DNA of 64,000 nt from an uncultured Candidatus Saccharibacteria bacterium (GTDB taxonomy: Bacteria > Patescibacteriota > Saccharimonadia > Saccharimonadales > AWTP1-31), in contig CALCZR010000058.1 of NCBI GenBank assembly GCA_937903325.1, positions 1,034-65,033 on the forward strand, written 5' to 3'. Under the pieces are notes generated by a model. The model saw only the letters and a program-made list of their open reading frames with translations. It had not been told where the DNA came from and did no database searches. Numbering within the stretch: position 1 is the stretch's first letter; each line of letters opens with the position of its first letter. Positions 3,390 to 45,052 of this stretch are shown in pieces. The translations under genes were made by a program, and so were the position numbers.

Positions 3390-3424
3390 CCCCAACCGGC
3401 CATGCTATACTGGACGTAAGCATT

Positions 3425-4627: not shown

Positions 4628-4678
4628 TATCTAACTTCTTAAGTTGGTATACTTAAGCAAGCAAAAGAGGAGACAGAT

Positions 4679-4972
4679 ATGAGTCGTTTTGACCAAGCTA
4701 AAATGCTATTACAAGTTAAGAAACTACAAAAAGAATTACAGAAACAAGTTATTACCGTTGAGCAAGGCGACGGCGCTGTACGCGTAGAGATCACAGGCGA
4801 ACAGAAGATCAAGAAAGTTCACATTGACCCAGAGCAAGTTGACCTGGATGACATTCGCGAACTAGAGCGTTGGATCGAAGACGCCGTTAAGGACGCTATC
4901 GCTCAAAGTCAGAAACTTGCCGCAGAGAAGATGCAGCCATTCATGGGAGCCCTTGGCGACCTCGGTCTGTAG
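4679..4972 (+). CDS. ybaB: YbaB/EbfC family nucleoid-associated protein
   Basis: 97 aa with KLQKELQK...VEITGEQKIKKVHIDPE typical of YbaB. GGAG RBS upstream. Conserved dnaX-ybaB-recR neighbourhood. Confidence 0.88.
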   Translation: MSRFDQAKMLLQVKKLQKELQKQVITVEQGDGAVRVEITGEQKIKKVHIDPEQVDLDDIRELERWIEDAVKDAIAQSQKLAAEKMQPFMGALGDLGL

Positions 4973-4978
4973 GCAAGC

Positions 4979-5584: not shown

Positions 5585-5799
5585 CCCCAGTGGTGAGTTG
5601 TAATAGCTGGGTCCCAGCCGGAGCCAGATGTTGCACCATCTATATTATGGGCTCGGCTACGAATCTGACCATCTTCAAGAGGGTCAGTGGCAAGGGCGCC
5701 AATAACAACATGCCCGATGGGCCGACCGATGTCTGCTAATTCATGAAGAGGCCGTGTTGGATCTTGATTTAGGCTAGCTATATCTATTGTTTCTGTCAT
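5581..5799 (-). CDS. hypothetical small protein (72 aa)
   Basis: ATG preceded by GGGAGG at about 8 nt. Convergent with recR, overlapping its stop by 4 nt. No family recognised. Confidence 0.45.
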   Translation of the reverse strand: MTETIDIASLNQDPTRPLHELADIGRPIGHVVIGALATDPLEDGQIRSRAHNIDGATSGSGWDPAITTHHWG

Positions 5800-5866
5800 T
5801 TTAGTGAACCTCCCACTACTTAAGTTTTAATGCTTAAATAATTGTTAAAATTATAGCACTAGCGTA

Positions 5867-6910: not shown

Positions 6911-6912
6911 TT

Positions 6913-18392: not shown

Positions 18393-18570
18393 GCTCCTCT
18401 CCCTCCTGTAGCTCCTTGAGCAACAATCTGTCATTGTCCAAATCTATTAGAATGCGATCAACCACCATAGTGGCGATCATCTCGATACGCGTCTCAGTCG
18501 GAAGCGACGTAAAGTACTGCTCTGAAGTGGTAGCTTTTTGGACTAATTCTTCTGCATTAAGTTGAGCCAT
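18373..18570 (-). CDS. hypothetical small acidic protein upstream of the recombinase (65 aa from MAQLN)
   Basis: ATG at 18570 preceded by GGAGGG. Overlaps the recombinase start by 20 nt. Candidate accessory or directionality factor by position only. Confidence 0.5.
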   Translation of the reverse strand: MAQLNAEELVQKATTSEQYFTSLPTETRIEMIATMVVDRILIDLDNDRLLLKELQEGEEHGDTTE

Positions 18571-18585
18571 ACTGTGTCCCTCCAA

Positions 18586-18758: not shown

Positions 18759-19592
18759 ATGGTGCGGTGGGGGAAGCTACAATGCTCTATGAAATCAACA
18801 GTATTCATCAATCAATCACAACTAAAGCTATTGCAATTCATTACTAAGTATCGGTTTGTAACAGCTCGACAGGTACAACAAAACTTTGGCTTCAAAAGTA
18901 GGACATCGGTAAACAACAAGTTAAAACGACTAGTGGCTACCGGCCTCATCGGTATGCAGTATGACAAGTCAAAAAAGCTATCAGGCGTTCCAGCTATTTA
19001 CTATGCAACACCGCAAGGTCTCCGCGAAGTTACCTCGCACCTTCCATATATCACTGAAGCAATTATTCGAGCTGCCTATAGTGATGCCGATGCTTCTGGC
19101 ACCTTGATAGAGAAAAGTGCTGAGATATTCAATATCGCCCAGCCCCTTCGTAACCAGTACCCGGATATGACAGTGCTTACGGCACGGCAAATAGGCGACC
19201 TAAGCTATTTTCCGCGGCCATTGCCTGATCTCTACCTTGCACACAAGCGTAGCGACACTACGCATAGGTACTTTGTGTATAACCTGCGAGACACAAAACG
19301 CTACGACATTGCTGTTCGTAGCACCATCACCAAACTCATGTCCTACCGTGAGTCCGAGACCTATGCAGAGTCGGGCAATGAGTTCCCAGCGATCCTGCTG
19401 GTCTGTCATTCAGCAGCCATCGAACGATTAGCCCAACGGGTCATGCAAAGTGCCTTAAACAAGTCGTATGAGTCTATACCGGTATATACGACGAGCTACC
19501 AAGCACTCGTTCAGCTTGAAGATACGAATCAACCCATATGGTCGAGCCTCAACGATCCCGACACTCTCATAACCCTTACAGAAACTGAGTAG
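18759..19592 (+). CDS. replication-relaxation (Replic_Relax, PF13814-like) family protein
   Basis: N-terminal wHTH pattern LKLLQFITKYRFVTARQVQQNFGF...KLKRLVATGLI...YYATPQGL, typical of this family. Alternative ATG at 18789. Confidence 0.65.
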   Translation: MVRWGKLQCSMKSTVFINQSQLKLLQFITKYRFVTARQVQQNFGFKSRTSVNNKLKRLVATGLIGMQYDKSKKLSGVPAIYYATPQGLREVTSHLPYITEAIIRAAYSDADASGTLIEKSAEIFNIAQPLRNQYPDMTVLTARQIGDLSYFPRPLPDLYLAHKRSDTTHRYFVYNLRDTKRYDIAVRSTITKLMSYRESETYAESGNEFPAILLVCHSAAIERLAQRVMQSALNKSYESIPVYTTSYQALVQLEDTNQPIWSSLNDPDTLITLTETE

Positions 19593-21429: not shown

Positions 21430-22890
21430 TTATGATTTAGCTCCTGCTAACCGAAGTGCGGTAATCCCAGAAAGTAGCTGTAGGTCTCGCAAGCTTTCGT
21501 CACCACCCTCCCATATAGGGGTTGCCGCAGCATTAAGCCAGAACCCAGCCATCCAGTGAAATGCATCAGGATCTACTCTTTCAATAAGCTCAGCAGGAAC
21601 ATCAAAACCGGACTTTTGGATGTGCGTTAGCGTGGCAGCCAAATCAATATCTCTATCCCCGTATTGTGCCCAATTCCAGTCGACTAATCGAACTTGGCCG
21701 GTCTCTGGATTCCAGGCACAGTTGTCGGCTCTGAGATCGTAATGTACGAGTGTATCGTCAGCAAATTTATATTTGCTGGCTTTATCTGTATCGGCAGTAA
21801 AATCAATACCTTGTGCGATATCGTCCGCACCTACTCCATGGAGTTTATGTCTTAATACTTCTTGCATCTCGGGAGACTCTAAGAGAGGTCGCCAACCGTC
21901 CTCATCCTGGCTGATGCTACTTTTAATAAATATGGTACGTTCAGCATCACTGAGCTTTAATGCAGCCAAGTCGTCCATAGCCTTAAGCGTGGCTGCTAAT
22001 CGTTCCGCAGTCCAGTTATCTTGCCAATCCCAACCATTTTCGGGGCTAAAGGCTTCAAGGGCAAAGGCTGAGTTGTCGGCATTTGTAGCAACAAGGTGCG
22101 GACTGTGTTCGAATCCATGAGCCTCTAAAGCCTTATACACGGCGACTTCTTTTCGTGCCCACATGCGAGTATTCTCCGCCGTGCCAACTTTTACAAACAC
22201 TTCTTTGCCGTCCGGTAGGGCTACGAGGCCACGCTGCGCCTGGCTAAAACCGCCCTCAACATCCTTGAGATGTGGCAACTGTTGTTCGACAGCTTGCCAG
22301 TCGTCACTAGAATCACCGTCTGCTTTCAACACCATCTCAATCTCCGGAATCTCCACAACACCACGCTCACGAGCATCTAAGTCCTCAATAGCTTTTCCGG
22401 TTTTCTCGAAACCATTCTTTTCGTAGAAGCCGATGGCGTTGTCGTTGTAGCTGGCTACATGTAAGTAGATATCCTCATCTCGGCCATGCCAATCAATAGC
22501 TTTATCTAACAGCTTGCGGCCTAGACCTTTGCCCTGAGCTTCCGGTAGTACGTAAATAGCACCAATTCTGCGTTGTCCGTCCATAATGCCTGGAGCAACA
22601 AAGCCCATTACTTTGCCCTCGTCTTTGGCAACAAAGATTGCACGATTTTCGCCACTGGTCTCAATGCCCTTACGCCACCATGCTATTTTGTCGGCAACTA
22701 ACTCACCGTGTTCGCCCTCTACACGATTGCGTACATCCTGTTCGGTAATGCCAGCTTCTTCGTTTGGGTAGGTATCAATCCAGGTTTGACGTTGTACCTC
22801 AAATACACCTGCTGCATCTTCTGGTGTAGCTGGTTGAACTTCGAGTGTTGGAGTGGGTTGCTCTGGCTTGGGGAGGGGTTGTTCGCTCAT
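21430..22890 (-). CDS. fusion protein: N-terminal GNAT acetyltransferase plus C-terminal aminoglycoside-phosphotransferase-like kinase
   Basis: GNAT motif A RRIGAIYVLPEAQGKGLGRKLL. Kinase catalytic loop VHYDLRADN and VDWNWAQYGDRDIDLA. Confidence 0.75.
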   Translation of the reverse strand: MSEQPLPKPEQPTPTLEVQPATPEDAAGVFEVQRQTWIDTYPNEEAGITEQDVRNRVEGEHGELVADKIAWWRKGIETSGENRAIFVAKDEGKVMGFVAPGIMDGQRRIGAIYVLPEAQGKGLGRKLLDKAIDWHGRDEDIYLHVASYNDNAIGFYEKNGFEKTGKAIEDLDARERGVVEIPEIEMVLKADGDSSDDWQAVEQQLPHLKDVEGGFSQAQRGLVALPDGKEVFVKVGTAENTRMWARKEVAVYKALEAHGFEHSPHLVATNADNSAFALEAFSPENGWDWQDNWTAERLAATLKAMDDLAALKLSDAERTIFIKSSISQDEDGWRPLLESPEMQEVLRHKLHGVGADDIAQGIDFTADTDKASKYKFADDTLVHYDLRADNCAWNPETGQVRLVDWNWAQYGDRDIDLAATLTHIQKSGFDVPAELIERVDPDAFHWMAGFWLNAAATPIWEGGDESLRDLQLLSGITALRLAGAKS

Positions 22891-24492: not shown

Positions 24493-25179
24493 ATGAAATT
24501 AGTCCTTGCTTCTCAAGGTTTTACTACTCCTGAGATAGCTAATGCTGTTGCTCGTCTCGCAGGAAAACCGTTTGATAAGCTTCGTGTAGCTGTTATCAAC
24601 GAAGCCTACGTGGGTATTACGGCAGGTCGGCATGAAGGCTGGCTGATCAACGAACTTTCTCAAATTACCCAGTATGCTAATACCGTATCTTTTGTAAATC
24701 TCAGAGCATACGAGCTTGATGAGGTTAAAAAACGGCTTGAATTTGCTGACCTTATTTACATTGTTGGCGGTGCACAACTTGTACTGCCACAGTTATTCCG
24801 TGCAACTGGCTTTGACAAACTACTGACAGAACTCGCCGAAACTAAAGTGATTATGGGTACATCAGCCGGGGCTAACATTCTTGGCAAGCAAATTGAAGAT
24901 GCAGATTACTGGCAAGACCAGTATGGTTCTTCGGAAGAATATCTAGCCAATCCATTCCTTGGCCTTGCTCCTTTTAATATTTTGCCGCATTTTGAACGCG
25001 AAGATCACCCAGACAGAACAACCGTAAAACTCACACCACTGCTTAAAGATCATCCTTTCAAACTGTACGGTGTCACCGATACTCAAGCCGTTATATTGAA
25101 CGAAGACGCGGTTGAATTTGTTGGCGGCGAACCAGCCGAGTTTGGAGTCTCGCCAAAGGCCAGTGAAGTTAAGGGCTAA
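24493..25179 (+). CDS. peptidase S51 / type 1 glutamine amidotransferase-like protein (peptidase E family)
   Basis: IYIVGGAQLVL and MGTSAGANIL (nucleophile Ser) motifs. Confidence 0.7.
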   Translation: MKLVLASQGFTTPEIANAVARLAGKPFDKLRVAVINEAYVGITAGRHEGWLINELSQITQYANTVSFVNLRAYELDEVKKRLEFADLIYIVGGAQLVLPQLFRATGFDKLLTELAETKVIMGTSAGANILGKQIEDADYWQDQYGSSEEYLANPFLGLAPFNILPHFEREDHPDRTTVKLTPLLKDHPFKLYGVTDTQAVILNEDAVEFVGGEPAEFGVSPKASEVKG

Positions 25180-33508: not shown

Positions 33509-33820
33509 ATGAGTAAATCCAAAACATTCGTATTCGACGGGGGAGCCGGGACATATTGGCTCAATAGTTTTCTAGCATTCTTAATTACCATCCTTACACT
33601 AGGGATCTGCTATCCGTATGCTTTAGTCCTTAAACAACGTTGGATTGCCAATCACACGATTGTGGAGGGTAGAAGGCTAAAGTTTACGGGTACCGGAATT
33701 GGTCTTTTTGGAAACTGGATTAAGTGGCTGGTACTTATTGTCATCACTGTAGGTATTTATAGTATCTGGGTTACTCCTCGCGTTCACAGGTGGGTGGTAG
33801 AGCATACTGATTTCGCCTAA
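33509..33820 (+). CDS. DUF898 (YjgN)-like small membrane protein
   Basis: F.FDGGAGTYW...TLGICYPYA...RRLKFTGTG pattern, two TM segments. Confidence 0.5.
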   Translation: MSKSKTFVFDGGAGTYWLNSFLAFLITILTLGICYPYALVLKQRWIANHTIVEGRRLKFTGTGIGLFGNWIKWLVLIVITVGIYSIWVTPRVHRWVVEHTDFA

Positions 33821-33932
33821 AGATTTAAGAAATATTTAAGATTTAGATACATGCATACTGCTTATGTATATAATAATGTTTGTATTTGTTCAAGTTTGTG
33901 TGTTAGATTATTTACATACACGGAGGAGTACC

Positions 33933-34271
33933 ATGCGGGGTAGAAGCAAACTTAGACTAGCAGCATTTACAGTCAGCGTTTTCCAATTGGTTTATGCTCA
34001 CCCCGTCTTCGCTGCCACTGGCGGCGTAAGCAATGTAGAGAACTTTATTAAGTCCATCATTGCCGTCCTCTCTGCTATCGCCGGCCTTGTCGCAACACTA
34101 TTCCTGGTTGTTGGCGGTATCGGCTATATAACAAGCTCTGGCAATCCAGACAACCTTGACCGCGCCAAGCGAACTATTATGCACTCGCTCTACGGCTTAG
34201 CTATTGTCATCGGTGCATTCGTGGTTAGTAATATCGTTACCGAACTTGCAACAAAGGCGTTTGGGAGTTAG
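33933..34271 (+). CDS. type IV secretion pilin-like protein (VirB2 analogue, T4SS_pilin-like)
   Basis: ATG with GGAGGAG 5 nt upstream, signal peptide ending AHPVFAA, two TM helices flanking GYITSSGNPDNLDRAKR. Confidence 0.7.
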   Translation: MRGRSKLRLAAFTVSVFQLVYAHPVFAATGGVSNVENFIKSIIAVLSAIAGLVATLFLVVGGIGYITSSGNPDNLDRAKRTIMHSLYGLAIVIGAFVVSNIVTELATKAFGS

Positions 34272-34279
34272 GAACCAAG

Positions 34280-35728
34280 ATGTTGGGAATATCCGCCATG
34301 CCGCTCAGCATCATGGCCGATTCAGCGTCGGCTGCTTCCGTCATGCAAGCCTATGTTGCACCTGCCATTAGAACGCTCTGTGCCGTCGCATCAGTAGCTT
34401 GTATATTCTTCGTCATTTACGGTGGCTATAACTATATGACCAGTGCCGGTAACCCGGAGAGTCTTGCTCATGCCAAGAGAGTTATTAGGAATGCACTGCT
34501 TGGGCTTATCATTGTCATTGCTGCTGCAACACTTACCACAATCCTCACTAATGCTTACGGCGGCACTCACGTATCACAAGGCTCAAATCTACCGCAACTG
34601 CAAGCTATTGAACCAGATAAACCAAGTAATATCGTGGTGGCCGTCATTATTCGCGCCATCACTGGTGTACTTAACAATATCATCCAATCAGTCGCACAGC
34701 CCTTCTTAAGTGCCTTGTCGTATTTCACTACATCTACGGAACTTCTTGCCAAGAACTCGGCTGTCTTTAACTTGTGGCTAAGCATGGTCGGCATTACTGA
34801 TGCTTTATTTGTACTGGTAGTCGCCCTGGTTGGTTTTCATGTCATGAGTGCAACGACATTTGGTTTTGAAGAGATTGAATTCAAGCACCTATTACCTCGA
34901 CTGGCTCTTATCTTCCTGGCCATGAACACGTCAATTTTCCTCATTGACGGCATCATACAGGTCAGCAACGTCATGATTCGTGCCATTTCAGCAGCTGCCG
35001 GTGAAACTTCCATATGGAATGTATTAACGTTAGTCGTGAAACAATCTGGCAGTCAAAGCATAGCAGCACTGCTCATCATGATCGTGTTCCTCGTGTTCTC
35101 GGTCATTCTACTGGTTTACTATGTTGGACGACTGATTACCCTCTATATTGGGGCAGTCCTGTCTCCACTCGTTCTCTTAGCGTGGCTCATCCCAGGTTTT
35201 CGTGACTTTTCGGAGACTGCCGCCAAAACCTACCTAACCACCATCTTTGTACTGTTCGTACACGTCGTCATCTTGCAGCTATCCGCTTCGCTATTTATTG
35301 GTCTTGGGACGAGCGATCAGGTGCCTAACGTCTTGATGTCTATGGTAACTGGCCTTGCAACCCTAATTGCACTACTTAAAACCCAAAGTGTCATGATGCA
35401 GTTTAGCTACGTCAGCGGCGGTGCCCGCAACGCTCGTAAGCTAGGTGGCCAATTTGTAAACGGCGTTAGCCACATTACAACTCGTGGCGCAAAAGCCGCA
35501 GCCACCGTCACCGGTATTAAGAAAGTGATGTCTCGAAGCGAAGCTGGTAGCTCAAAGTCACCTACCAACAAACATTCAGATCCAAATCATACTCAACCGT
35601 TTTCAAATCGACCAAACACCAGTACCACACCTGCAAAACAAACCAACCGACCCAAGACCGGCACCACTACCAAAGCACCGAAACAATTATCTGAAGCAAA
35701 GGTTTCCAAGCCTATGGAGAAGAAATGA
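34280..35728 (+). CDS. fusion of a second pilin-like module with a polytopic VirB6/TrbL-like membrane domain
   Basis: The N terminus repeats the pilin motif (NYMTSAGNPESLAHAKR). At least 6 further TM segments follow, then a basic Thr/Pro/Lys-rich tail. Confidence 0.65.
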   Translation: MLGISAMPLSIMADSASAASVMQAYVAPAIRTLCAVASVACIFFVIYGGYNYMTSAGNPESLAHAKRVIRNALLGLIIVIAAATLTTILTNAYGGTHVSQGSNLPQLQAIEPDKPSNIVVAVIIRAITGVLNNIIQSVAQPFLSALSYFTTSTELLAKNSAVFNLWLSMVGITDALFVLVVALVGFHVMSATTFGFEEIEFKHLLPRLALIFLAMNTSIFLIDGIIQVSNVMIRAISAAAGETSIWNVLTLVVKQSGSQSIAALLIMIVFLVFSVILLVYYVGRLITLYIGAVLSPLVLLAWLIPGFRDFSETAAKTYLTTIFVLFVHVVILQLSASLFIGLGTSDQVPNVLMSMVTGLATLIALLKTQSVMMQFSYVSGGARNARKLGGQFVNGVSHITTRGAKAAATVTGIKKVMSRSEAGSSKSPTNKHSDPNHTQPFSNRPNTSTTPAKQTNRPKTGTTTKAPKQLSEAKVSKPMEKK

Positions 35729-36240
35729 AAGCAACCGTCGTCCCAGCTCAAATCACCACCATCGAAGACCGCATAGTCGGCAGCCTTGGAATGTCGCAGC
35801 TTGTGCTACTCATATTGCCAGTCATCCTTGGCGGTGGACTATTCATTGTCTTGCCGCCCACCATGCACTTAGCTCCTTACAAAATATCACTCATCGCCCT
35901 ACTAGCAGTCTTTTGTGCGACCATGTCGATCCGAATTAAAGGTCGGATCATACTACTATGGCTCGTTACGATTCTCCGCTATAACATCCGGCCTCGGTAC
36001 TACGTGTTCAACAAACGAAGTCAGCGTGGACGCGAGCAATATCTGCATGCTGTAGAACAAGAGCCGCCCAAAGAGAAAGAAACAAAGACAGTTACCAAGC
36101 TTAAAGAGTTACGCCTGAGCACCGCTGAGATTATCCAAGTCGAACGACTATTGGCCGATCCAGCAGCAAATGTTTTTTATGCAACTGACAAGAAAGGAAG
36201 ACTCAATGTCCGTATTACAGAAGTCAAACCGGAAAGCTAG
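35725..36240 (+). CDS. PrgI family (VirB3-like) T4SS membrane protein
   Basis: VPAQITTIEDRIVGSLGMSQLV followed by two TM helices. 4-nt overlap with the upstream gene. Confidence 0.65.
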   Translation: MKATVVPAQITTIEDRIVGSLGMSQLVLLILPVILGGGLFIVLPPTMHLAPYKISLIALLAVFCATMSIRIKGRIILLWLVTILRYNIRPRYYVFNKRSQRGREQYLHAVEQEPPKEKETKTVTKLKELRLSTAEIIQVERLLADPAANVFYATDKKGRLNVRITEVKPES

Positions 36241-36835
36241 CGCCCGCGACCAAATTGACATCCAAAGTGTCAAAAATGGAGTACTGATTCTGCCTGGCAA
36301 TAAATATCGAAAAGTCCTGAACGTTTCGCCAGTCAACTTTGAACTGCGCAGCGAAGACGAGCAGGATGCCATCATCGACACCTACGAAAGTTTCCTAAAC
36401 TCACTCGGTCATCCCTTACAGATTCTTATCCGCACCAGAGAACTCGATATGGATAAGTACTTAAGCGAACTCACGGACAAGCTGGCTGGTGAGGAAGTCC
36501 CTATCTACAAGCAACAACTGAAAAACTACGACGAGTTCATTAGGTCGCTCATCACCACCAACAAGATCTTATCTCGTTATTTCTACGTGATTGTGCCCTA
36601 TGACTTCACCGGTAAACTCGACTTCGACAGTATCCTAGAGCAACTTAACCTACGAGTCGATATTGTACAGAAAGGGCTGGCACGACTAGGTATGCAGTCA
36701 TCTGAACTTGGCAATCTCGAAGTGCTTGATCTGTTCTATAGCTTCTACAATCCGGAACAATCCAAGATCCAGCCGCTCACCAGTCAGGCGCTTGAATTGC
36801 TCCATACATCATTTATTAAAAAGGAGGCAGTATGA
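36206..36835 (+). CDS. VirB4-like protein, N-terminal domain encoded as a separate ORF
   Basis: The IDIQSVKNGVLIL..YRKVLNVSPVNFELRSEDEQDAIIDTYESFLNSL pattern is as at the N terminus of Gram-positive VirB4 homologues (Tn916 Orf16 / TrsE type). Confidence 0.65.
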   Translation: MSVLQKSNRKASARDQIDIQSVKNGVLILPGNKYRKVLNVSPVNFELRSEDEQDAIIDTYESFLNSLGHPLQILIRTRELDMDKYLSELTDKLAGEEVPIYKQQLKNYDEFIRSLITTNKILSRYFYVIVPYDFTGKLDFDSILEQLNLRVDIVQKGLARLGMQSSELGNLEVLDLFYSFYNPEQSKIQPLTSQALELLHTSFIKKEAV

Positions 36836-38571
36836 CCAATCCTATGACACTAGTCCGCGACTGGAAGAAACAGCGCGACGAACGACCCAAAGAATTAAGC
36901 CTGCTGTTTGGCGAGCAAGATACGACTGATTTGTTCTCCTACGCTGGACTAGAAGAACAGGCAGATTACTTATGCATTGACGGAACCTATGTCCGTACGC
37001 TATTCATTTCGGGCTATCCGTTCGTGGCAAATAGTGGCTGGCTCGATTCATTGGTCAACTTCAACCATGATGTCGATATCACGCATCACATCCACGAAGT
37101 AAATGCCCTGCAAGCATTGCCTAAGTTGCATCGTAAGATTACTGAGCTAGAAAGCACTAAACGCCAAATGATTCGGTCGGGTAAGATCGTAGGGTCTGAG
37201 ATTACCGATCCGCTTGATTCAGCCATGGAGCTACGCGACAAGATTCAGCGCGGCCAAGAAAAGTTGTTTCAAGTTTCAATCTCGGTAGCACTCCGAGCCA
37301 AAACACTACTGGAGCTCGACAAGATCACTAAGATGCTCGAAACAACGCTATCTGCACGGTTGTTCTATACCAAAGTAGCTCGCTACCAACAGCTCGAAGC
37401 CCTACAAACGGTACTTCCTAGAGGTGAAGATCAACTCAGCCAGAAACGAAACCTCGATAGTAGTTCGGCGGCCTTAACCTTTCCGTTCATGTCTTCAGAG
37501 TTAGTGCACGAATCAGGCATTCTGTATGGAGTAAACAATTCCAATAACTCACTAGTGATTCTTGATCGTTTCAGCTTACATAATGCCAACTCCATCACTT
37601 TTGCACAATCTGGTTCAGGTAAAAGCTACACGACTAAAGTTGAGATCCTGCGTCAGCTTATGCACGGCACTAAAGTAATCGTGATTGACCCCGAACGCGA
37701 ATATAAAAACCTCACGGAGTCAGTCGGCGGTACATACATCAAGCTATCTACCAGAAGCAAAGAAAAGATTAACCCCTTTGATCTTGCCTCGACATTTCAT
37801 ACCAAGAAAGACCTCTCCGAACACATCCAAGATTTGACGGAAGTAATTAGTCTGATGGCCGAGGGGCTCGACAAGCGCGAAAAGGCAGCCGTAGACAAGG
37901 CCATTCTGAAAATATATGAGGAAAGCGACCAAGGTGAGCAGCCACTGCTACAGGATCTGTACGCCGAACTGCGAGAACTTGGTCAACTTCAACTTAGTGA
38001 AAGACTAGAGAAATATATCAGCGGCTCATTGGCCGGTGTATTCAACACTGCAACCAACATTAGACTCACCAACCGGCTGATTGTTTTCGACATTAAGGAT
38101 ATGCCAAATAATCTGCGTCCAATCATGATGCTTATTATCTCTAACTTTGTGCAAAACCAAGTTAAAGCTAAGCCGGAGAAACGGCTGCTGGTCATTGACG
38201 AGGGCTGGCTACTGCTTGAGCATGAAGAAAGTGCGCGGTTTGTCGCTGGCCTCGTTCGTCGTGCTCGAAAGTACTACTTAGGCGTTGCCATCATATCTCA
38301 GCAAGCCAATGACTTCTTGCACAGCGACTATGGCCGAGCCATTGCTTCGCAAAGTGCCCTGCGTATTCTGATGCGACAAGACACCACCACTATTAAGAAT
38401 GTGGTAAGCGAGTTTAGTCTGAGTGGTTTTGAGGAAAATTACTTATTAACCTGCGGTAGAGGCGAGGCACTGATTATTGCTGACCAAAATCATGTAGCAG
38501 TCACCGTCAAAGCTAGTAACAAAGAGCATCCACTCATTACGACCGATCCGGCAGAAGTCTTTAGCCCATGA
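36832..38571 (+). CDS. VirB4-like T4SS ATPase (C-terminal ATPase part)
   Basis: Walker A QSGSGKSYTTK, Walker B LLVIDEGW, IISQQ motif. ATGA overlap with the previous ORF and its own AAGGAGG RBS. Confidence 0.88.
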   Translation: MTNPMTLVRDWKKQRDERPKELSLLFGEQDTTDLFSYAGLEEQADYLCIDGTYVRTLFISGYPFVANSGWLDSLVNFNHDVDITHHIHEVNALQALPKLHRKITELESTKRQMIRSGKIVGSEITDPLDSAMELRDKIQRGQEKLFQVSISVALRAKTLLELDKITKMLETTLSARLFYTKVARYQQLEALQTVLPRGEDQLSQKRNLDSSSAALTFPFMSSELVHESGILYGVNNSNNSLVILDRFSLHNANSITFAQSGSGKSYTTKVEILRQLMHGTKVIVIDPEREYKNLTESVGGTYIKLSTRSKEKINPFDLASTFHTKKDLSEHIQDLTEVISLMAEGLDKREKAAVDKAILKIYEESDQGEQPLLQDLYAELRELGQLQLSERLEKYISGSLAGVFNTATNIRLTNRLIVFDIKDMPNNLRPIMMLIISNFVQNQVKAKPEKRLLVIDEGWLLLEHEESARFVAGLVRRARKYYLGVAIISQQANDFLHSDYGRAIASQSALRILMRQDTTTIKNVVSEFSLSGFEENYLLTCGRGEALIIADQNHVAVTVKASNKEHPLITTDPAEVFSP

Positions 38572-39155
38572 GCCCTGTACTTCTCCTAACGTTTTCAGGA
38601 AGCATCAAAAAGCACTTCTGGGTCGCTATGGCGACACTGGTGGTTCTAGTATCCATGCCTATGATCGTTGTCATTTCGTTTGGGCAGAACGTACTGCAAT
38701 ATTTATCTGGTAGTGGCGCGGAAACTACTTACGCCATATCAACCGAAGTACAAGGGTTCTACGAAGGCCCAGAAGTTGCTGGCGATACCTACGAGTGGGG
38801 TAACTGCACGTATTGGGCTTACGCGCTACGCCTTAAAGATGGCCATCCCATTCCGACCACATGGGGCAATGCTAACACTTGGGATGACGGCGCACTGCGA
38901 GATGGATACGAAGTAAATAGCACGCCAGAAGTAGGAGCAATTTTCCAGACAGACGAAGGCAAATGGGGGCACGTAGCCTACGTCAGCGAAGTTAATGACA
39001 GTACTGGCGAGTGGAAGATATCTGAGATGAACGTAAAAGGTCGCAATGTTGTCAGTAGCCGTACGTTTGCCGCTAGCTCAGCTAAGTATTTCAACTTTAT
39101 TCATTACAAAATAGGAGACATAGCATGGAACTTCCAGCCTACGTTGCTATTGTAA
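38568..39155 (+). CDS. CHAP-domain peptidoglycan hydrolase (VirB1 functional analogue)
   Basis: N-terminal TM anchor, catalytic GNCTYWAY (Cys) and WGHVAYV (His). Confidence 0.8.
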   Translation: MSPVLLLTFSGSIKKHFWVAMATLVVLVSMPMIVVISFGQNVLQYLSGSGAETTYAISTEVQGFYEGPEVAGDTYEWGNCTYWAYALRLKDGHPIPTTWGNANTWDDGALRDGYEVNSTPEVGAIFQTDEGKWGHVAYVSEVNDSTGEWKISEMNVKGRNVVSSRTFAASSAKYFNFIHYKIGDIAWNFQPTLLL

Positions 39156-41707
39156 TGCACTACTGTTTGGTAGTGGTAATAACTTTTGGGGTACTGCTGG
39201 CAGTATATGGACTCTTCGTCGCAGTACGTCTATATCTCAACCGCAAATACCTTAAGAACCGTGAGCTTATCTGGCTAGAACTTACACCGCCAGCCACGCT
39301 TGAGAAAACACCAGAATCAACAACGCAACTTTTTTCGGTTATACATGGTTTGCGCACTGCCCGCTCTTTCAAAGATCATGTACTTAACCGTGCACCGGTA
39401 CTTGATTTTGAGATTGTATCCTCCAAGCAGGAGGGTATTCGTTATCTGGTTTGTATAGAACGGTCATGGTCAGACGTTCTCCAAAAAGCTGTAGCTGCCT
39501 ATATCCCCGATGCTAAAGTACGACCTACAGAATACACACCGTCACCGACTCAAGCCCTTATCGAGTTTAAGCAGCAACAGCATTACGTTCTGCCACTTAC
39601 CACGCCACGTAACTTCGAACAACACGACCCCTTGTCGTATGTGACGGCGGCAATGACAAAATTGAGTGATGATGAACAATTAACCATGCAACTTGTCATC
39701 ACGCCCGTAAAGCTCAGTGAAGCTACTCGGCTCTCCAAACGCATTAGGAGTAATGAAGATATCCTCCAGAAAGTTTCGCACGGGGGTATTTCCCGAATTA
39801 GTAAAGTCAGCGGCATGGTTGGTAGTGGCCTGCTGAATATGACGGATGCTATTGGCGAAACCTACCATGGGTCAACCTCCGCATATAAGCACAACGCATC
39901 GAGTCGAGATGCCGCTTTTCAGACCCAAGTACAGAAGCGCCAACGACCGGCTCGAACGCTGAGCGCCTTTGAGTTGGAGCTCATGGAGTCTATGAACCAA
40001 AAGGTCTCACAGCAACTGTTCCAGGTAAGCCTACGGATTATGACCAATGGCCAGCAAGCACACAGACAGCTTGCCGCTCTCAGGTCAGCACTGGATGGCT
40101 ACTCCATGCCACCGTACCAAGCACTAAAAGCAAAGCTACGTCTTCCACTGTTTGATGAATATCACAAAAGGTTGGCCAACAAACGACTACCAAATCTATC
40201 TCGGAAACGATCCCTAATCCTATCTGCAACCGAAGTTGCCAGCCTATATCACTTTCCGTCAACTCGAATCAGTAAAACAGATAATCTCGTCACCTCACTG
40301 AGCCGTACGCTCCCAGCTCCCATATCCCTGAAGAATAATCCTCAGCTCGATGTTATCTTGGGCGAGAATACTCACCGTGATGTTCATACACCGATTGGTT
40401 TGACTGCCGCTGAACGAGAGCGCCACATCTACATTATTGGTGGCACGGGTAACGGCAAGACCACCATGCTTCAATATGGCATCGTACAAGACATGCAGAA
40501 CGGTAAGGGACTGGCTGTTGTTGATCCCCATGGAGATATGGCCGAAACATTATTACGGCACGTGCCGGAGCACCGAATTAAAGATGTCGTGTACTTCAAC
40601 CCTGACGACATCGAACGACCAATAGGCATGAATCTCCTTGAGATCCCAGATGGTTTAAATGAGGATCAGAAAAACAAGGAAAAGGATCTTGTTACCGAAT
40701 CTCTTGTCTCCGTTTTCCGCAAAATCTTCTCCGAAGAAGATACCGGTGGTCACCGTATCGAATATGTCCTACGTAGTACGATTCAGACAGCCTTAACTGT
40801 TAAAGATGCAACAATCTTTACGATCTTTGAACTCCTCAATGATCCCGTGTATAGAACAAAGGTGGTCGCCAAACTCGATAATAAGCACCTCATCAACTTC
40901 TGGAAACACGAGCTTGGCAAAGCCGGAGACATGCAAAAGGTAAAAATGGCAGCCGGTATCACTGCTAAGATCGGCCGCTTCCTGTTCTCGGATAGTGCTA
41001 AGCGTGTTCTAGAGCAACCGAAATCAACTATAAACTTCGAGGAGATCATAGATGAAGGTAAGATCCTTATCTGCAACTTCTCGAAAGGGCTCATCGGTGA
41101 AGATACATCCGAGCTGTTCGGTATTACCGTTTTAGCCAAGCTCCAACTAGCCAGCTTACGACGTGCCCGCGTACGTCAGGGCACTCGTAAACCATTCTAT
41201 TTGTATGTTGACGAGTTCCAGAACTTTGCTACTCAATCATTCGTCCAAATGCTGAGCGAGTCACGTAAATATAAGTTATTCCTGACCATGGCCGAGCAGT
41301 CTACCTCCCAACAGAAAGATCAACGCATGGTGCAAATTGTACTTGCCAATGTGGGGACAATCCTGTGCTTCAGAACTGGTAATCCAGCGGACGAGAAGCT
41401 TCTGCTACCACTCTTTAGCCCATACATTAATGAGGGTGAAATATCCAACCAGCCGCCATTCAACTTCTATGCACGCTTTGCCTCAACAATCTCCCAGGAA
41501 CCGCTGTCTGGCAATACCATTGTTCTAGAGAGCGATGGTGATGAAACGATAGCCGAAAAAGTACGCAAAGCATCCCGAGCCACCTACGGTAACGACCCCT
41601 TGCCACAAGAAAAGCCTAGGAAAACAGCCAGCTCTGGAGACAAAGCAAAGTCGAATAACCAACGCAAAAAGACAGCGCAAGGCGACCCAGAAGATACACG
41701 CAACTAA
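39125..41707 (+). CDS. type IV coupling protein (VirD4/TraD-like ATPase) with a long N-terminal extension
   Basis: N-terminal TM, Walker A IIGGTGNGKTT, VVDPHGD, Walker B YLYVDEFQNF. An alternative ATG at 39155 overlaps the CHAP stop (TAATG). Confidence 0.8.
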   Translation: MELPAYVAIVMHYCLVVVITFGVLLAVYGLFVAVRLYLNRKYLKNRELIWLELTPPATLEKTPESTTQLFSVIHGLRTARSFKDHVLNRAPVLDFEIVSSKQEGIRYLVCIERSWSDVLQKAVAAYIPDAKVRPTEYTPSPTQALIEFKQQQHYVLPLTTPRNFEQHDPLSYVTAAMTKLSDDEQLTMQLVITPVKLSEATRLSKRIRSNEDILQKVSHGGISRISKVSGMVGSGLLNMTDAIGETYHGSTSAYKHNASSRDAAFQTQVQKRQRPARTLSAFELELMESMNQKVSQQLFQVSLRIMTNGQQAHRQLAALRSALDGYSMPPYQALKAKLRLPLFDEYHKRLANKRLPNLSRKRSLILSATEVASLYHFPSTRISKTDNLVTSLSRTLPAPISLKNNPQLDVILGENTHRDVHTPIGLTAAERERHIYIIGGTGNGKTTMLQYGIVQDMQNGKGLAVVDPHGDMAETLLRHVPEHRIKDVVYFNPDDIERPIGMNLLEIPDGLNEDQKNKEKDLVTESLVSVFRKIFSEEDTGGHRIEYVLRSTIQTALTVKDATIFTIFELLNDPVYRTKVVAKLDNKHLINFWKHELGKAGDMQKVKMAAGITAKIGRFLFSDSAKRVLEQPKSTINFEEIIDEGKILICNFSKGLIGEDTSELFGITVLAKLQLASLRRARVRQGTRKPFYLYVDEFQNFATQSFVQMLSESRKYKLFLTMAEQSTSQQKDQRMVQIVLANVGTILCFRTGNPADEKLLLPLFSPYINEGEISNQPPFNFYARFASTISQEPLSGNTIVLESDGDETIAEKVRKASRATYGNDPLPQEKPRKTASSGDKAKSNNQRKKTAQGDPEDTRN

Positions 41708-41996: not shown

Positions 41997-42686
41997 ATGA
42001 AATCTGTTGGAGTAATTGGCGGACTTGGTCCTGAAACAACTGCTGAGTTTTACTTGGAAGTCATTTTTCAGTGTCAAAAACGAGATGATAAGCAGCGCCC
42101 TTTAATCGTTATATCTAGCGTACCACTTCTTTTTGAAATCGAAAGAGATCTCATTGAGTCCAATACGGGCAAAGAGCGCTACATTCCGTTTCTAATAGAA
42201 GAGGCGAAGCGACTCGAAAAAAGCGGGGTCGATTTTTTGGTCATGCCCTGCAACTCGCTCCATGTTTTCATAAACGAAATCAGGAGTGCAGTTAGTATTC
42301 CTGTACTAAGCATAGTTGAAGAGACGGCCAAATATCTTAAAAAGCAGGGCTTCGGCAAAGTCGGGCTTATATCAACCTCGGCTACTGTTGCAAACAACGT
42401 CTACGAGAGCAAATTACGGGATGAAGGCATCGAGTACGTTACGCCAGATGACCTGCAACGAGCCAAAATGGATAAAATCATCCAGAGGCTCATAAATGGT
42501 CAGCACCTCAACCAAGATAGGGAGCTGATACTCGAGGTCGTCAAAGGTCTATCAACACAAGACGTAGATAGTGTCGCCTTAGCATGTACCGATCTACAGC
42601 TTCTACTTCCAAGTAGTAGCGAAGTACCGATTTTTGACACGATGAAAGTCTTAGCAGAAAGTACCGTTGACACCATTCTCTCGTAG
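41997..42686 (+). CDS. aspartate/glutamate racemase family protein (aspartate racemase-like)
   Basis: GGLGPETT, and catalytic Cys motifs MPCNSLH and LACTDL. Confidence 0.8.
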   Translation: MKSVGVIGGLGPETTAEFYLEVIFQCQKRDDKQRPLIVISSVPLLFEIERDLIESNTGKERYIPFLIEEAKRLEKSGVDFLVMPCNSLHVFINEIRSAVSIPVLSIVEETAKYLKKQGFGKVGLISTSATVANNVYESKLRDEGIEYVTPDDLQRAKMDKIIQRLINGQHLNQDRELILEVVKGLSTQDVDSVALACTDLQLLLPSSSEVPIFDTMKVLAESTVDTILS

Positions 42687-42712: not shown

Positions 42713-43357
42713 ATGAAACTCTATCTATCGTCTTACCGCATGGGCAATCACACTGAGGAACTTAAGAAGCTTGTCGGCAAAGCTAATGCTAAAGTTGCGG
42801 TGTGTGTTAACGCCAGTGATGGTTCGGATGACGTTGAACGCAAAGCAGAGGGGCTTGCCCGGGAGCTTGAGGACATGAGAAGTCTCGGCTTTGAGGCCGA
42901 GCAACTAGACTTGCGTGAGTACTTTGGCAAAAGTGGACTTGCCGAAAAGATGAAATCCTACGATCTGATCTGGGTTAGGGGTGGCAATACATTCCTGCTT
43001 GCCAAAGCATTTCGGCAGAGTGGTTTTGATAAAGTCTTTGCCGACCAAGTTGTATCTGGTGGGCTCGTATATGCTGGATACAGTGCTGCATTCTGCGTAC
43101 TTAATACTTCCTTGCGTGGCGTAGAACTTGTTGATGACAAAGACGCTCAAGCCGAAGGCTACGAGCCTGGTGAGATCTGGGAAGGGTTAGGTGTCATAGA
43201 CTTTTATCCGATAGTGCACTTTAGGTCAGATCACCATGAGTCTGAGCTTGTTGAGAAAGAATACGAGTTTGTAGTCAAAAACAATATCCCCCACAAGACG
43301 TTCAAAGATGGAGATGTATACCTAGTTAATGGTTCCAAGCAGAGAACACTTTCTTAG
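42713..43357 (+). CDS. peptidase S51 / peptidase E-like protein (second paralogue)
   Basis: IWVRGGNTFLL and AGYSAA (nucleophile Ser) motifs. Confidence 0.7.
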   Translation: MKLYLSSYRMGNHTEELKKLVGKANAKVAVCVNASDGSDDVERKAEGLARELEDMRSLGFEAEQLDLREYFGKSGLAEKMKSYDLIWVRGGNTFLLAKAFRQSGFDKVFADQVVSGGLVYAGYSAAFCVLNTSLRGVELVDDKDAQAEGYEPGEIWEGLGVIDFYPIVHFRSDHHESELVEKEYEFVVKNNIPHKTFKDGDVYLVNGSKQRTLS

Positions 43358-43391: not shown

Positions 43392-43595
43392 TTAAGACTT
43401 TGTTTCCCTGTACCACTTCTCAAGTAAATCGGGATTGGTATGAGATAGCTCGTGGAAGTTGGCATACATTTCTTCTAGCTTCTTAATAGCCATTTCGGGC
43501 GTGACGGTATCTTCTGGATATACAAGCTTTAGATGTCGAATCATCTTTTCGATATCGGCTTCGTTTAGTTCGTAGTCGTCTGGTAAATCGTTCAT
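43392..43595 (-). CDS. hypothetical small acidic protein
   Basis: 67 aa. Its start lies 1 nt after the upstream PLD-like stop. Confidence 0.5.
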   Translation of the reverse strand: MNDLPDDYELNEADIEKMIRHLKLVYPEDTVTPEMAIKKLEEMYANFHELSHTNPDLLEKWYRETKS

Positions 43596-43596
43596 A

Positions 43597-44076
43597 TTAT
43601 CTCCTAGTATATCTTTTTACATTTATAAACCCTAGTAACTTATCCGCTAACTCAGCGGAGTCCGTGCGCCACATGATCTCACAGCTATCTATTTGTGACA
43701 GGATGTTAAGGCTCCCATTCCATACGATCTCTTTATCAATTACGGCAAGTTTGCGATGATGCCGAGCCGTGTAGAATACCTCCACCCCGATAGACTGTAG
43801 AGCTGCTATCGCATTGAGCGCCTGAACTTCGTATTCCTCATTATGCTCAATAGGATCACGAGTATTGACGATGATCGACACACCTCTGCTACGCAAACGT
43901 GAGAGCAATGGGAATAATGCATTAATTCGGTTCGTTGTGATGAAGGGACACTCAATAACCACTTCGTTTTGAGCAAATCGTAAGTCCTCTTCAAAAGCTC
44001 TGTAGAATGACTCCTGATCGTACATTTGGACATGACCACTAGGTACACTCCTGATGCGTCGAAATATGTTTAGCAT
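43597..44076 (-). CDS. phospholipase D-like (HKD) domain protein, Nuc-type candidate nuclease
   Basis: A single HxK(x)4D motif (HHRKLAVID) followed by NGSLN. About 160 aa, as in single-HKD nucleases. Confidence 0.75.
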   Translation of the reverse strand: MLNIFRRIRSVPSGHVQMYDQESFYRAFEEDLRFAQNEVVIECPFITTNRINALFPLLSRLRSRGVSIIVNTRDPIEHNEEYEVQALNAIAALQSIGVEVFYTARHHRKLAVIDKEIVWNGSLNILSQIDSCEIMWRTDSAELADKLLGFINVKRYTRR

Positions 44077-44231
44077 ACATCGCCCTCCTCGTAGATAAGC
44101 TTGCCATCTATATCGTGTACACCAAGTCTTCTGAGGTTGTGCGCTAAGTCAATAAGTGATTGAATAAGGGTATCTGTTATTTCTAGGTGCTGTGGATAAG
44201 TGTTCGCAACTGCACCCTCCCACCTAGCCAA
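44070..44231 (-). other. 53-codon open frame entering repeat A; candidate displaced native 3' end of the recombinase gene or a small CDS
   Basis: Open from TTG GCT AGG TGG GAG... to a TAA that overlaps the PLD-like ATG (GTATGCTAA). It has the same codon register across GCT AGG as the recombinase ORF across the tRNA. Confidence 0.35.
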
Positions 44232-44233
44232 AC
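44131..44233. repeat. direct repeat copy A, ending in a tRNA-Gln 3'-end-like core (candidate attR)
   Basis: CCCTCCCACCTAGCCA (44215-44230) versus the tRNA CCCTCCGCCCTAGCCA (16708-16723), 14/16 by hand. Roughly three-quarters identical to copy B over about 103 nt, ungapped. Confidence 0.6.
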
Positions 44234-44237
44234 TGAG

Positions 44238-44264
44238 AACCCATCGAAAGATGGGTTTTTTGTT
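44238..44264 (+). terminator. orphan plus-strand intrinsic terminator directly after repeat A
   Basis: AACCCATC-GAAA-GATGGGTT followed by TTTTTTGTTT. No plus-strand gene upstream. Confidence 0.7.
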
Positions 44265-44286
44265 TAGGACAGATCATTCTTATAAT

Positions 44287-44802
44287 CTACTGTGTAGCTT
44301 GTCGAATTCGATCAATTAGACTCAGAACGTCTACAGGTCCGTAGCCATAGCCAGCATCAGAGCTCATACCATCCTGCTTGAATGATGCAGTACCCCAGCC
44401 TCCACTCGGTAGTTGACTGACTATATCTACAGAGCATCTACCATGATCTGCAAATACTGACTGGTTCATTGTGCCACCCAAAGATACCCTAACAATTGTA
44501 GGAGTTTGGGATCCATAAATTGCTGCAGATGCTACTGAAAATATTGGATATTCTAAGCCACTAGCTTCTACTAAACGTTCGGCATCGCCCTCTGGCAACC
44601 ACGGGAAAGGCGCGGTCAGTACGGTAGTTGGATGTTCCGCATTATCGCTGAATCCGCCCATAGGTCCTTGGCGCCAATTACCTAATACGGCTTCATCATA
44701 ACCTTCTCGTCCTATTAGCTCATTACCTAACTCTTGTAGCCCTACTGCTTCTGGGCAAAGACCAATATCTAGCTTTGAAATCACTGTACAGCTCCTAAAC
44801 AA
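44287..44802 (-). CDS. hypothetical protein
   Basis: 171-codon ORF (TTG start, GTG alternative 6 codons in) between the two repeats. No family recognised. Confidence 0.45.
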   Translation of the reverse strand: MFRSCTVISKLDIGLCPEAVGLQELGNELIGREGYDEAVLGNWRQGPMGGFSDNAEHPTTVLTAPFPWLPEGDAERLVEASGLEYPIFSVASAAIYGSQTPTIVRVSLGGTMNQSVFADHGRCSVDIVSQLPSGGWGTASFKQDGMSSDAGYGYGPVDVLSLIDRIRQATQ

Positions 44803-44895
44803 CTTCTTAATATATAGTATTATTCAATAAACAAAATAAAATGTAAAGTCATATCTCTGAATAGTCATGTACTCTCATTGAGTATACTGAAACTC

Positions 44896-44998
44896 CTGAG
44901 CTCGTATGCCAACTTTATAAGTGATTGAACCAGCCTATCTGACACTTCAAAATCTTGTGGAAAAGTGTTCGAATTTACACCCTACCACCTAGCCAAAG
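44896..44998. repeat. direct repeat copy B (more degenerate tRNA 3'-end-like core)
   Basis: GTTCGAAT + TTACA + CCCTACCACCTAGCCA (core 44980-44995, 13/16 to the tRNA end). The frame homologous to copy A is interrupted by TAG. Confidence 0.6.
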
Positions 44999-45004
44999 TA
45001 AAAC

Positions 45005-45031
45005 GATCACCGTTTGGTGGTCATTTTATTT
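45005..45031. terminator. intrinsic terminator after repeat B, usable from both strands
   Basis: GATCACC-GTTT-GGTGGTC followed by ATTTTATTT. The reverse strand has GTTTTACTTT after the hairpin. It lies just downstream of the 45053..45949 gene. Confidence 0.6.
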
Positions 45032-45052
45032 AGCAACTGTTCCCTAGACCCC

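Follow-up and report, generated by a model that had tools for sequence, protein, structure and literature searches.

An integrative conjugative element of Candidatus Saccharibacteria with a predicted serine-integrase attachment site where a tRNA-Gln gene ends

Introduction

Integrases whose genes extend over their own attachment site have been described among the tyrosine recombinases: examples are the IntP/IntX integrase of Myxococcus phage Mx8, in which integration alters the IntP C-terminus, and the integrase of Sulfolobus SSV1 (Tojo et al. 1996, cited through the Islander paper, PMC4383910). Here we describe a comparable arrangement for a large serine recombinase carried by a conjugative element of an uncultured Candidatus Saccharibacteria bacterium, in a 64,000-nucleotide (nt) stretch of contig CALCZR010000058.1 that we call the window. 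The integrase gene overlaps a tRNA-Gln(TTG) gene at one end of the element, and an imperfect 16-nt copy of the tRNA 3' end, repeat A, stands at the other; an earlier note, made from the letters of the window, had proposed that repeat A is the right attachment site, attR. As in Mx8 and SSV1, the attachment site is predicted to lie within the integrase coding sequence and integration would swap the C-terminus. Unlike in those tyrosine systems, the acquired tail is antisense to a tRNA, and integration would also detach a downstream operon partner.

In its domain set (with a weak zinc-ribbon match), its short sites and the few bases shared at the crossover, the system resembles the integrases of Listeria A118/LI, Bxb1 and phiC31. 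To our knowledge, characterised large serine integrases target protein-coding or intergenic sites. The predicted target here differs in being a tRNA 3' end whose T-loop would supply the recognition motif, with the element's own site, attP, inside the integrase open reading frame (ORF); a further difference from characterised serine integrases is that no directionality factor was identified for this element. In the sites analysed by Rutherford et al. (2013, PMC3783163) the target site attB mimics attP, and the motif of the zinc-ribbon domain sits 5 bp further inward in attB than in attP, a likeness that is seen here in the left half-sites only.

The genomic islands catalogued by Islander and TIGER (PMC4383910, PMC7192596) likewise insert at tRNA 3' ends, leave the tRNA intact and keep the integrase beside it, but they use a tyrosine integrase, and on their far side the tRNA 3' end is copied exactly and at length, whereas only 5-8 nt are common to the sites here, the displaced fragment is inexact (14/16, with 8 nt identical) and the integrase belongs to the serine class. 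According to the Islander paper, serine integrases were not known to use tRNA genes (PMC4383910). The TIGER survey placed 14 of 297 predicted serine-integrase elements at tRNA or tmRNA genes, as 'not reported previously' and in need of experimental proof (PMC7192596), and tRNA goes unmentioned in the main text of a large computational survey devoted to serine recombinases (PMC10083194). Serine integrases at tRNA genes are barely documented in the accessible literature, and a partial coverage of the literature on Saccharibacteria mobile elements and serine recombinases turned up no paper. Transcription across the circular joint is known from Tn916. For ICEKp1, state-dependent switching of the int promoter is reported (PMC13023037). 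As in these two elements, excision here would join the ends and create a transcription unit absent from the integrated state; unlike in them, the joint would fall inside a coding sequence and alter the protein itself.

Results

Repeat A and the ends of the element

ARAGORN found a single tRNA gene in the window, tRNA-Gln(TTG), with the 3' end CCCTCCGCCCTAGCCA. Repeat A (CCCTCCCACCTAGCCA, 44215-44230, plus strand) differs from this end by two mismatches, matching 14 of 16 positions, and the terminal 8 nt of the tRNA (16716-16723, CCTAGCCA) recur in it unchanged. The mismatches fall at tRNA positions 67 and 68, whose partners are C6 and G5 in the 5' acceptor strand TAGGGCG, so that repeat A would be unable to complete a tRNA, as the earlier note had also argued. 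A lone 14/16 match proves nothing: the analytic expectation for at most two mismatches in 16 is ~0.03 in 2 x 64 kb, in agreement with the few percent that the note had estimated by hand. With at most three mismatches, three matches were found against 0.28 expected, a count reached in 0 of 100 shuffles.

The ends are defined by copies of the element in other contexts, which were located by exact-protein look-up; the samples holding the element are ERZ650287, ERZ650304, SRR6231148, SRR20818728, SRR14092358 and SRR14092360. Junctions are written here with a slash at the meeting point of element and host sequence. In other samples a copy that is 99.7% identical to the window element sits at tRNA-Gln(CTG). 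At its left end (...CCCTCATCCCCAGCCA/TATGACC; loci L011 and L030) an intact tRNA-Gln(CTG) is joined to window-identical sequence from TATGACCTTCGGG on, and at its right end (...CACCTAGCCA/AAGAAAAGCC; L006-L008) a 99.7% match to the window runs through CCTAGCCAAA and gives way to a different terminator hairpin and unrelated genes. L030 and L006 share their sample of origin. The right end recurs in yet another context in L027, a variant of ~90% identity, where attR is followed by the terminator and then by host sequence. Homology of the second-site copies to the window breaks off at exactly the two points that the note had named, and its identification of repeat A as attR is borne out by these junctions and by that of L027, which end at the same points.

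The host side was approached with a degenerate DNA pattern consisting of the tRNA-Gln 3' end and host-type flank, which gave 12 loci in genome and metagenome collections. One of them, L019, holds an intact and unoccupied tRNA-Gln(TTG) followed directly by AACTAAGGACCCATCGAAAGATGGGTTTTTTG, 92% identical over 51 nt to repeat A and its flank. Exact look-ups of the host genes of the left and right flanks returned contigs of the same arrangement only, and no empty site. The hairpin after repeat A (AACCCATC-GAAA-GATGGGTT, then the T-rich TTTTGTTT) has a folding energy of -20.8 kcal/mol (z = -6.5); a simple terminator scan did not pick it up, presumably because the T-run was taken into an extended stem. 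Since the terminator of L019 abuts an unoccupied tRNA-Gln(TTG), the hairpin after A is host sequence that once adjoined the tRNA, which upholds the proposal that it is the displaced tRNA-Gln terminator. An origin of this terminator in an older element was considered and is ruled out by L019, in which the same hairpin stands right behind the unoccupied tRNA-Gln.

Together, we consider it highly probable that repeat A is attR and that the element was inserted by its own serine integrase into the 3' end of tRNA-Gln(TTG), a judgement that takes in the reading of the terminator above and that of the integrase tail below. The opposite view, that the 14/16 match arose by chance and that plain chromosome with a recombinase beside a tRNA extends from the tRNA to A, can appeal to a frequency of one such match in ~3% of windows, which is not negligible over a whole-genome scan; given that independent junctions, the empty site and natural attP forms are concordant and that conjugation genes lie between the tRNA and A, we attach practically no weight to it.

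Crossover and half-site geometry

The second site narrows the crossover. Its tRNA side carries a C where the element side has a T (CCCCAGCCA against CCTAGCCA), and the first base after the core is an A in every host flank and a T in the element. These two differences confine the exchange to AGCCA (16719-16723), and the 8-nt identity in the window is partly a coincidence of the target. The 8-bp core proposed earlier holds as an identity, then, but as a crossover core it shrinks to at most 5 nt. As at other serine-integrase sites, few bases are shared at the crossover (CCTAGCCA in the window, AGCCA across sites) between hybrid attL and attR arms that are otherwise unrelated. Placing the crossover dinucleotide by half-site symmetry was also tried: the TTCG/CGAA pair points to the TA of CTAG, and the placement was rejected as the second site has a C at that T.

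In the left half-sites, GTGTTCG at 44200-44206 sets TTCG 25-28 nt from the CCA end of repeat A, while the TTCG of the T-loop in the tRNA arm lies 20-23 nt from the CCA end. TTCG or TTCC occupies -28 to -25 in four element left arms: those of the window, L024, the L019 island described below and L028. The 5-bp shift between P arms and tRNA arms appears to match the published attP/attB geometry, on one side only. The P arm resembles the tRNA over its inner 16 nt (14/16), a mimicry to be expected if the recombinase domain reads like sequence in both sites.

The motif GTGTTCGMA occurs five times in the window against 1.1 expected, a number reached in 0 of 100 shuffles. Its copies at 16790 and 16896 are in direct orientation, 67 and 173 nt from the core, and lie within conserved integrase codons (RTPE, FFEHL); they may serve as accessory sites for binding or arise as a side effect of the coding sequence.

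The integrase and its two ends

The recombinase ORF in full spans 16614-18434 on the minus strand (606 aa). It matches the Resolvase domain PF00239 (E = 6.7e-10; 39.7 bits against a cutoff of 23.3; residues 26-125 of the 606-aa ORF), the Recombinase domain PF07508 (30.9 bits, cutoff 21.1) and, weakly and below the 25.3 cutoff, Zn_ribbon_recom (18.9 bits), and it matches the phrog_95 integrase at E = 3e-37 over residues 17-494. Inspection places a candidate catalytic serine within GIRVSSKEQ, and the cysteines of CPEC...YHC can be recognised by eye, as can a long, charged helical region. These are the domains of a serine recombinase rather than the tyrosine chemistry of Mx8 IntP; what is found in common with IntP is an attP core inside the integrase ORF and an altered C-terminus, as seen in the reconstructed ORF, in L029 and L024, and in proteins P0001, P0123 and P0124, but the enzyme does not belong to the IntP family.

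The final 35 codons of the integrated form are antisense tRNA-Gln and the host DNA upstream of it (...GHMAR/AEGFEPPNASTKNWCLTTW...). At E <= 0.001 the integrase has 1393 relatives in the database. Among its 120 closest homologues, 97 terminate in tails antisense to a tRNA T-loop (GFEPP, GIEPLLPG, GFEPAIF and alike), with a constant reading phase across the CCA (xTG Gxx). One case was checked in DNA: P0102, a sister of P0057, crosses tRNA-Glu in L025. Near-identical integrases carry three distinct tRNA-derived tails (P0001, P0123, P0124), P0123 being a database isoform of identical integrase sequence with a tRNA-Gln(CTG)-antisense tail. An exact-sequence look-up of the integrated integrase P0001 found no record. 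The C-termini recorded in the database thus result from integration and do not represent the native end, and the placement of attP inside the gene appears to be a habit of a large integrase family rather than a local quirk.

The predicted native end lies at repeat A. On the minus strand the recombinase ORF and A have an identical codon phase across GCT AGG, and in A the frame stays open for 53 codons (LARWEG...GDVC) to a TAA (44072-44070) that overlaps the ATG of a PLD-like gene (44076-44074) as ATGCTAA; all three particulars, given in the earlier note, were verified in the sequence. Its further prediction, that the free form of the integrase reads into this tail ahead of the PLD-like gene, finds agreement in two relatives. 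In L029, database protein P0127 is an integrase fused in frame to a homologous tail (...FLAQFEPKGLLAGTEGANSNTFPQDFEVTDGLLRSLVQLAYKLSMLAIRDIDGIITFEPAI); at 90% identity it clusters with P0002, a protein 87% identical to the window integrase, and its tail shares 24 of 50 residues with the predicted one. In L024, the 47%-identical integrase P0057 ends 2 nt ahead of a PLD-like gene (42% identical), followed by a 74-aa ORF (39% identical to the 67-aa ORF of the window), a helix-turn-helix (HTH) gene and a coupling-protein homologue, with Replic_Relax and a small ORF upstream; genes found at the left and right ends of the window element are accordingly contiguous in that relative. The L027 variant retains both the tail frame and the stop/ATG overlap with its PLD-like gene.

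Substitution patterns also point to a coding tail. The ratio of nonsynonymous to synonymous substitution rates (dN/dS) between the tail at A and that of L029 is 0.54 over the whole tail and 0.34 past the first 11 codons; it is 0.27 for A against L027 and 0.26 for L029 against the remnant at repeat B (below). On this comparative evidence the tail frame is genuine and under purifying selection. The search for homologues of the reconstructed C-terminus, suggested as a check, succeeded in part: with the tail alone it returned only two small ORFs across attR elsewhere, while the members of the 90%-identity cluster yielded P0127. The converse test, in which homologues for the tRNA-antisense tail only would refute the reading, is unsound, since the copies in the database are for the most part integrated. 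For the PLD-like protein, sequence searches detected no solved structure and gave no NCBIfam assignment, and no relatives of it were confirmed in viral contigs.

On the other side of the core, a hairpin in the P' arm (16749-16781) lies within the integrase codons ENKKTTEVSDVFL and folds at -22 and -19.5 kcal/mol on the two strands. It has A- and T-runs on both sides, and its DNA and peptide are conserved in the close relatives L028 and L029. This hairpin is probably the replacement tRNA-Gln terminator after insertion, and could stop transcription both ways, ~40 nt ahead of the crossover.

Several observations weigh against the interpretation developed so far. No mirror or symmetric motif was recognised in the right half-sites, and the exact attP symmetry, centred on the T-A of CTAG, is at odds with the C/T difference of the second site. 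An exact search of viral contigs for the circular junction CACCTAGCCATATGACCTTCGGG, a check that had been proposed earlier, was negative for this element, and no full-length attP-form protein of this element stood among the close database matches. The two integration sites are different tRNA-Gln loci that might belong to one species, and therefore do not prove transfer between hosts. The hairpin with its T-run falls inside the integrase ORF, ~40 nt short of the core, also when read along the integrase strand, and could end many transcripts short of the tail. The tail diverges fast (48% identical where the integrase is ~87% identical), and L028 (P0009, 72% identity) has a non-tRNA tail without similarity and no PLD gene after it, so that the tail may be dispensable.

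The points that concern the tail could be accommodated if attR is correctly placed but the open frame is incidental, the integrase ending near the core, the tail untranslated or dispensable and the coupling to the PLD-like gene without a role. We regard this as possible, though doubtful. The integrated form, with an arbitrary tRNA-antisense tail, would still need to catalyse excision; the tail of L028 is wholly different and at 47% integrase identity the tails are only faintly alike; the N at +9 in every tail is due to the DNA motif TTCG/TTCC and not to protein function; and the same hairpin and T-run precede the core on the integrase strand. Set against this, dN/dS is below 1 in three comparisons, including codons past a plausible 25-30-bp half-site (0.34); amino-acid similarity reaches ...RDIDG, 40 codons from the core; the overlap of stop and ATG is retained at ~90% identity (L027) and the adjacency of integrase and PLD-like gene at 47%; and inspected homologues have no stop before the core, the shorter ones breaking off at or just before it. 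The interpretation we prefer keeps the tail as part of the free integrase.

Content of the element

The region from the tRNA to repeat A is an integrative conjugative element of the Saccharibacteria bacterium (Table 1). Pfam matches to conjugation machinery comprise TraG P-loop/AAA_10/CagE, T4SS-DNA_transf/TrwB, TrbC and T4SS_pilin, TrbL_4, PrgI and CHAP, so that a VirB4 ATPase, a coupling protein, a pilin and channel proteins are present, and the element has defined ends and a record of mobility in its identical ends at tRNA-Gln(TTG) and tRNA-Gln(CTG) and the empty site. A phage or prophage identity was considered and ruled out by the type IV secretion system (T4SS), coupling-protein and relaxase-like genes. 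The relaxase-like gene has a marginal Replic_Relax match (26.2 bits against a cutoff of 25.3) and a weak match to a MobC subfamily; together with the small ORF it is kept beside the integrase in the relatives L024, L025, L028 and L030. Behind the T4SS operon follow, in order, an HTH gene, a racemase, an S51 peptidase, the 67-aa ORF and the PLD-like gene. Possibilities for a directionality factor are the ORFs at 18373-18585 and 43392-43595 and the PLD-like gene, none of which is singled out. The G+C content is ~45% in the element and ~48% in the flanks, a gap too small to be informative.

The cargo includes two S51 peptidase genes (24493-25179 and 42713-43357) and an Asp/Glu racemase (41997-42686), and another racemase gene lies just beyond the element at the second integration site. 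The peptidases and racemases may be cargo related to the cell wall or to D-amino acids.

Table 1. Features of the element, its junctions and the neighbouring repeats. Positions are those of the window unless a locus is given; a slash marks the meeting point of element and host sequence.
Feature	Position or locus	Strand	Description
Integrated conjugative element, whole	16724-44230		27,507 bp with one core copy; Pfam scans; ends from second integration site and empty site
tRNA-Gln(TTG)	16649-16723	+	ARAGORN; host half of attL
Large serine recombinase, integrated form	16614-18392	-	592 aa; identical (100%) to database protein P0001
P' arm of attL	16724-16800	+	starts TATGACCTTCGGGTCGAAATTGAGC; same sequence joined to other tRNA in L011/L030
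Small ORF	18373-18585	-	left-end module, beside integrase
Relaxase-like gene (Replic_Relax)	18759-19592	+	left-end module
Cargo genes	~19.6-33.4 kb	-	Pfam scans
Type IV secretion operon	33509-41707	+	pilin, TrbL-like, PrgI, VirB4, CHAP hydrolase, coupling protein
67-aa ORF	43392-43595	-	beyond PLD-like gene
PLD-like gene	43597-44076	-	PLDc_2, E = 9e-10
Detached integrase tail	44070-44222	-	~51 codons, RWEGAVANTYPQHLEITDTLIQSLIDLAHNLRRLGVHDIDGKLIYEEGDVC and stop; in register with integrase over core
P arm of attR and core	44190-44230	+	contains repeat A
Displaced tRNA-Gln terminator	44231-44268	+	host side of attR; hairpin fold; same sequence in L019 and, 3' of attR, in L027
Relic of older related element	44269-44995		ORF 44287-44802 (-) and repeat B with P-arm/tail remnant 44893-44995
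Repeat B	44980-44995		CCCTACCACCTAGCCA, 13/16; then terminator; 765 nt downstream of A
Second host terminator	44996-45036	+	terminator scan; fold -15 kcal/mol; 90% identical to L019 7339-7378
GTGTTCGMA copies	16790-16798, 16896-16904, 22105-22113, 44200-44208, 44965-44973		four of five close to attachment sites
attL, window	16700-16740		GAATCCCTCCGCCCTAGCCA/TATGACCTTCGGG
attR, window	44207-44250		CTGCACCCTCCCACCTAGCCA/AACTGAGAACCCATCGAAAGATGGGTTTTTTG
Empty site	L019		GAATCCCTCCGCCCTAGCCA/AACTAAGGACCCATCGAAAGATGGGTTTTTTG
attL, second site	L011, L030		GAATCCCTCATCCCCAGCCA/TATGACCTTCGGG
attR, second site	L006-L008		CACCCTCCCACCTAGCCA/AAGAAAAGCCACCCATAGCCGGGTGG
attR, third context	L027		CACCCTCCCACCTAGCCA/AGTTAAGAACCCATTGAAAGATGGG
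attP, reconstructed			...CACCTAGCCATATGACC...; junction ...GCACCCTCCCACCTAGCCATATGACCTTCGGGTCG...
Empty attB junction, reconstructed			...TCCCTCCGCCCTAGCCAAACTGAGAACCCATCG...
Extra copies of tRNA-Gln 3' end	L013, L017, L018, L019, L020, L023, L027		e.g. L017 1418-1584; L019 1102-1252

Repeat B and older insertions at tRNA-Gln

A third copy of the tRNA-end sequence, repeat B, had been overlooked in the earlier note. It closes a module (44893-45036) of P-arm and tail remnant, CCTAGCCA and terminator. Over 105-111 nt the left sides of A and B show 72-74% identity, and their mismatches are distributed 13/4/14 by codon position; the tail frame at B is broken by a TAG right behind ARW, and this tail is nearer to the L029 type than to A. 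Between the two attR-like repeats, a 171-aa ORF (44287-44802, minus strand) without Pfam, PHROG or NCBIfam match is probably a remnant of the older element. Repeat B is accordingly an attR, now decayed, that an older related element left at the neighbouring target.

An alternative would make B the true right end and extend the element to 44995, or, in a variant, derive the terminator after A from the older element. B does show the same layout as A, with P-arm-like sequence, CCTAGCCA and terminator, and tandem accretion at tRNA genes is common in general. Homology of the second- and third-context copies nevertheless stops at A and not at B, the terminator after A abuts an unoccupied tRNA-Gln in L019, and the tail at B contains a stop and belongs to a different, L029-like lineage. 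Repeat B was on these grounds rejected as the element end, and we judge the alternative very improbable, retaining A as attR.

The neighbouring target is visible in relatives. L019 and L027 show the ancestral arrangement downstream of tRNA-Gln: the first terminator is followed, after ~150 nt, by an exact repeat of the tRNA 3' end with a second terminator behind it. In the window this second copy is gone. L019 carries at its second tRNA-Gln-like copy a 6-kb island without recombinase (1253-7345), whose genes include a triple GNAT protein, an MFS transporter, ABC-F, cupin and, at the right end, a PLD-like gene. Its right end reads ...CGTCTAGCCA/AAGTAAAGCGATCACC..., the flank being a homologue of the terminator after repeat B in the window, and its ends (TATAG..., ...CGTCTAGCCA) resemble those of the window element. 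The island is probably a decayed or non-autonomous relative of the element.

Many Saccharibacteria hold, 130-230 nt past tRNA-Gln, one or two more exact copies of its 16-nt 3' end, each with a terminator (Table 1). In several genomes the spacer begins with GGATTCGAAC and contains a hairpin whose two sides co-vary; the RNA-like stretch from the tRNA-Gln terminator to the second 3' end copy gave no Rfam match and no ARAGORN call. The spacer could be an undescribed small RNA or the scars of earlier insertions. In L006 (8277-9680; also in L007 and L008) another, shorter serine recombinase of 430 aa, with full Resolvase, Recombinase and zinc-ribbon matches, stands directly 3' of a second tRNA-end copy (...CCCTCATCCCCAGCCA/GATGCGACAG), its ORF stopping short of the site, which suggests a second recombinase lineage with the same kind of target.

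Two further observations concern tRNA genes of related contigs. L014, a related genome that shares the left-flank gene order of the window, repeats the 5' half of tRNA-Gln(TTG) in two additional 33-nt copies (368-400 and 483-515, 97% identical) near the intact tRNA. On the contig of the unintegrated relative L024, ARAGORN calls an unusually long tRNA-Asn of 92 nt (5711-5802); group I introns in tRNA-Asn genes of Patescibacteria have recently been reported (PMC13011429).

Discussion

In the free form of the element, the 3' end of the integrase gene would contain attP. The P arm of this site is a look-alike of the tRNA T-arm and acceptor end with the TTCG placed 5 bp further out, and its P' arm encodes the integrase residues ...FLAQFRPEGHM. 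Strand exchange would take place within AGCCA, a stretch made up of the final base of the acceptor stem, the discriminator and the CCA, and would leave the tRNA intact while moving the host terminator 27.5 kb, to the far side of A; the P' arm hairpin would presumably take over termination. In the integrated state the integrase ORF runs antisense through the tRNA and lacks its native tail of ~51 residues, and the PLD-like gene and the 67-aa ORF lie at the opposite end of the element, away from the integrase. Excision, of which this copy may still be capable, would restore an operon of integrase, tail, PLD-like gene and 67-aa ORF with its stop/start overlap. The two integrase isoforms, or the splitting of the operon, may have a regulatory effect.

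A broader proposal, which we put forward tentatively, is that a large Patescibacteria clade uses tRNA 3' ends as attB and the T-loop as the zinc-ribbon motif, and that an isoform switch arising from attP within the gene senses the integration state. The free isoform would bear the conserved tail of ~50 residues and be co-translated with the PLD-like protein, whereas the integrated isoform would bear an arbitrary tRNA-antisense tail and converge on an active tRNA gene. Such a switch might set integrase stability, level or directionality, in a manner comparable to the change from IntP to IntX in Mx8 and to integration-dependent immunity, both of which are tyrosine systems.

Integration by serine integrases and the targeting of tRNA genes are each textbook topics, while their combination is not. 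The locus supplies precise positions for attL and attR, together with an empty site of the attB type and attP forms that occur in nature, in a large enzyme family and in a host phylum with very few genetic tools. An integrase for a conserved tRNA end, carried by a conjugative element with a recent two-site footprint, is an obvious candidate for integration vectors in Saccharibacteria, and would offer a natural case of a serine integrase reading a tRNA-shaped target. The tail swap further makes it testable, with two protein variants, whether an attP in the integrase gene regulates the enzyme.

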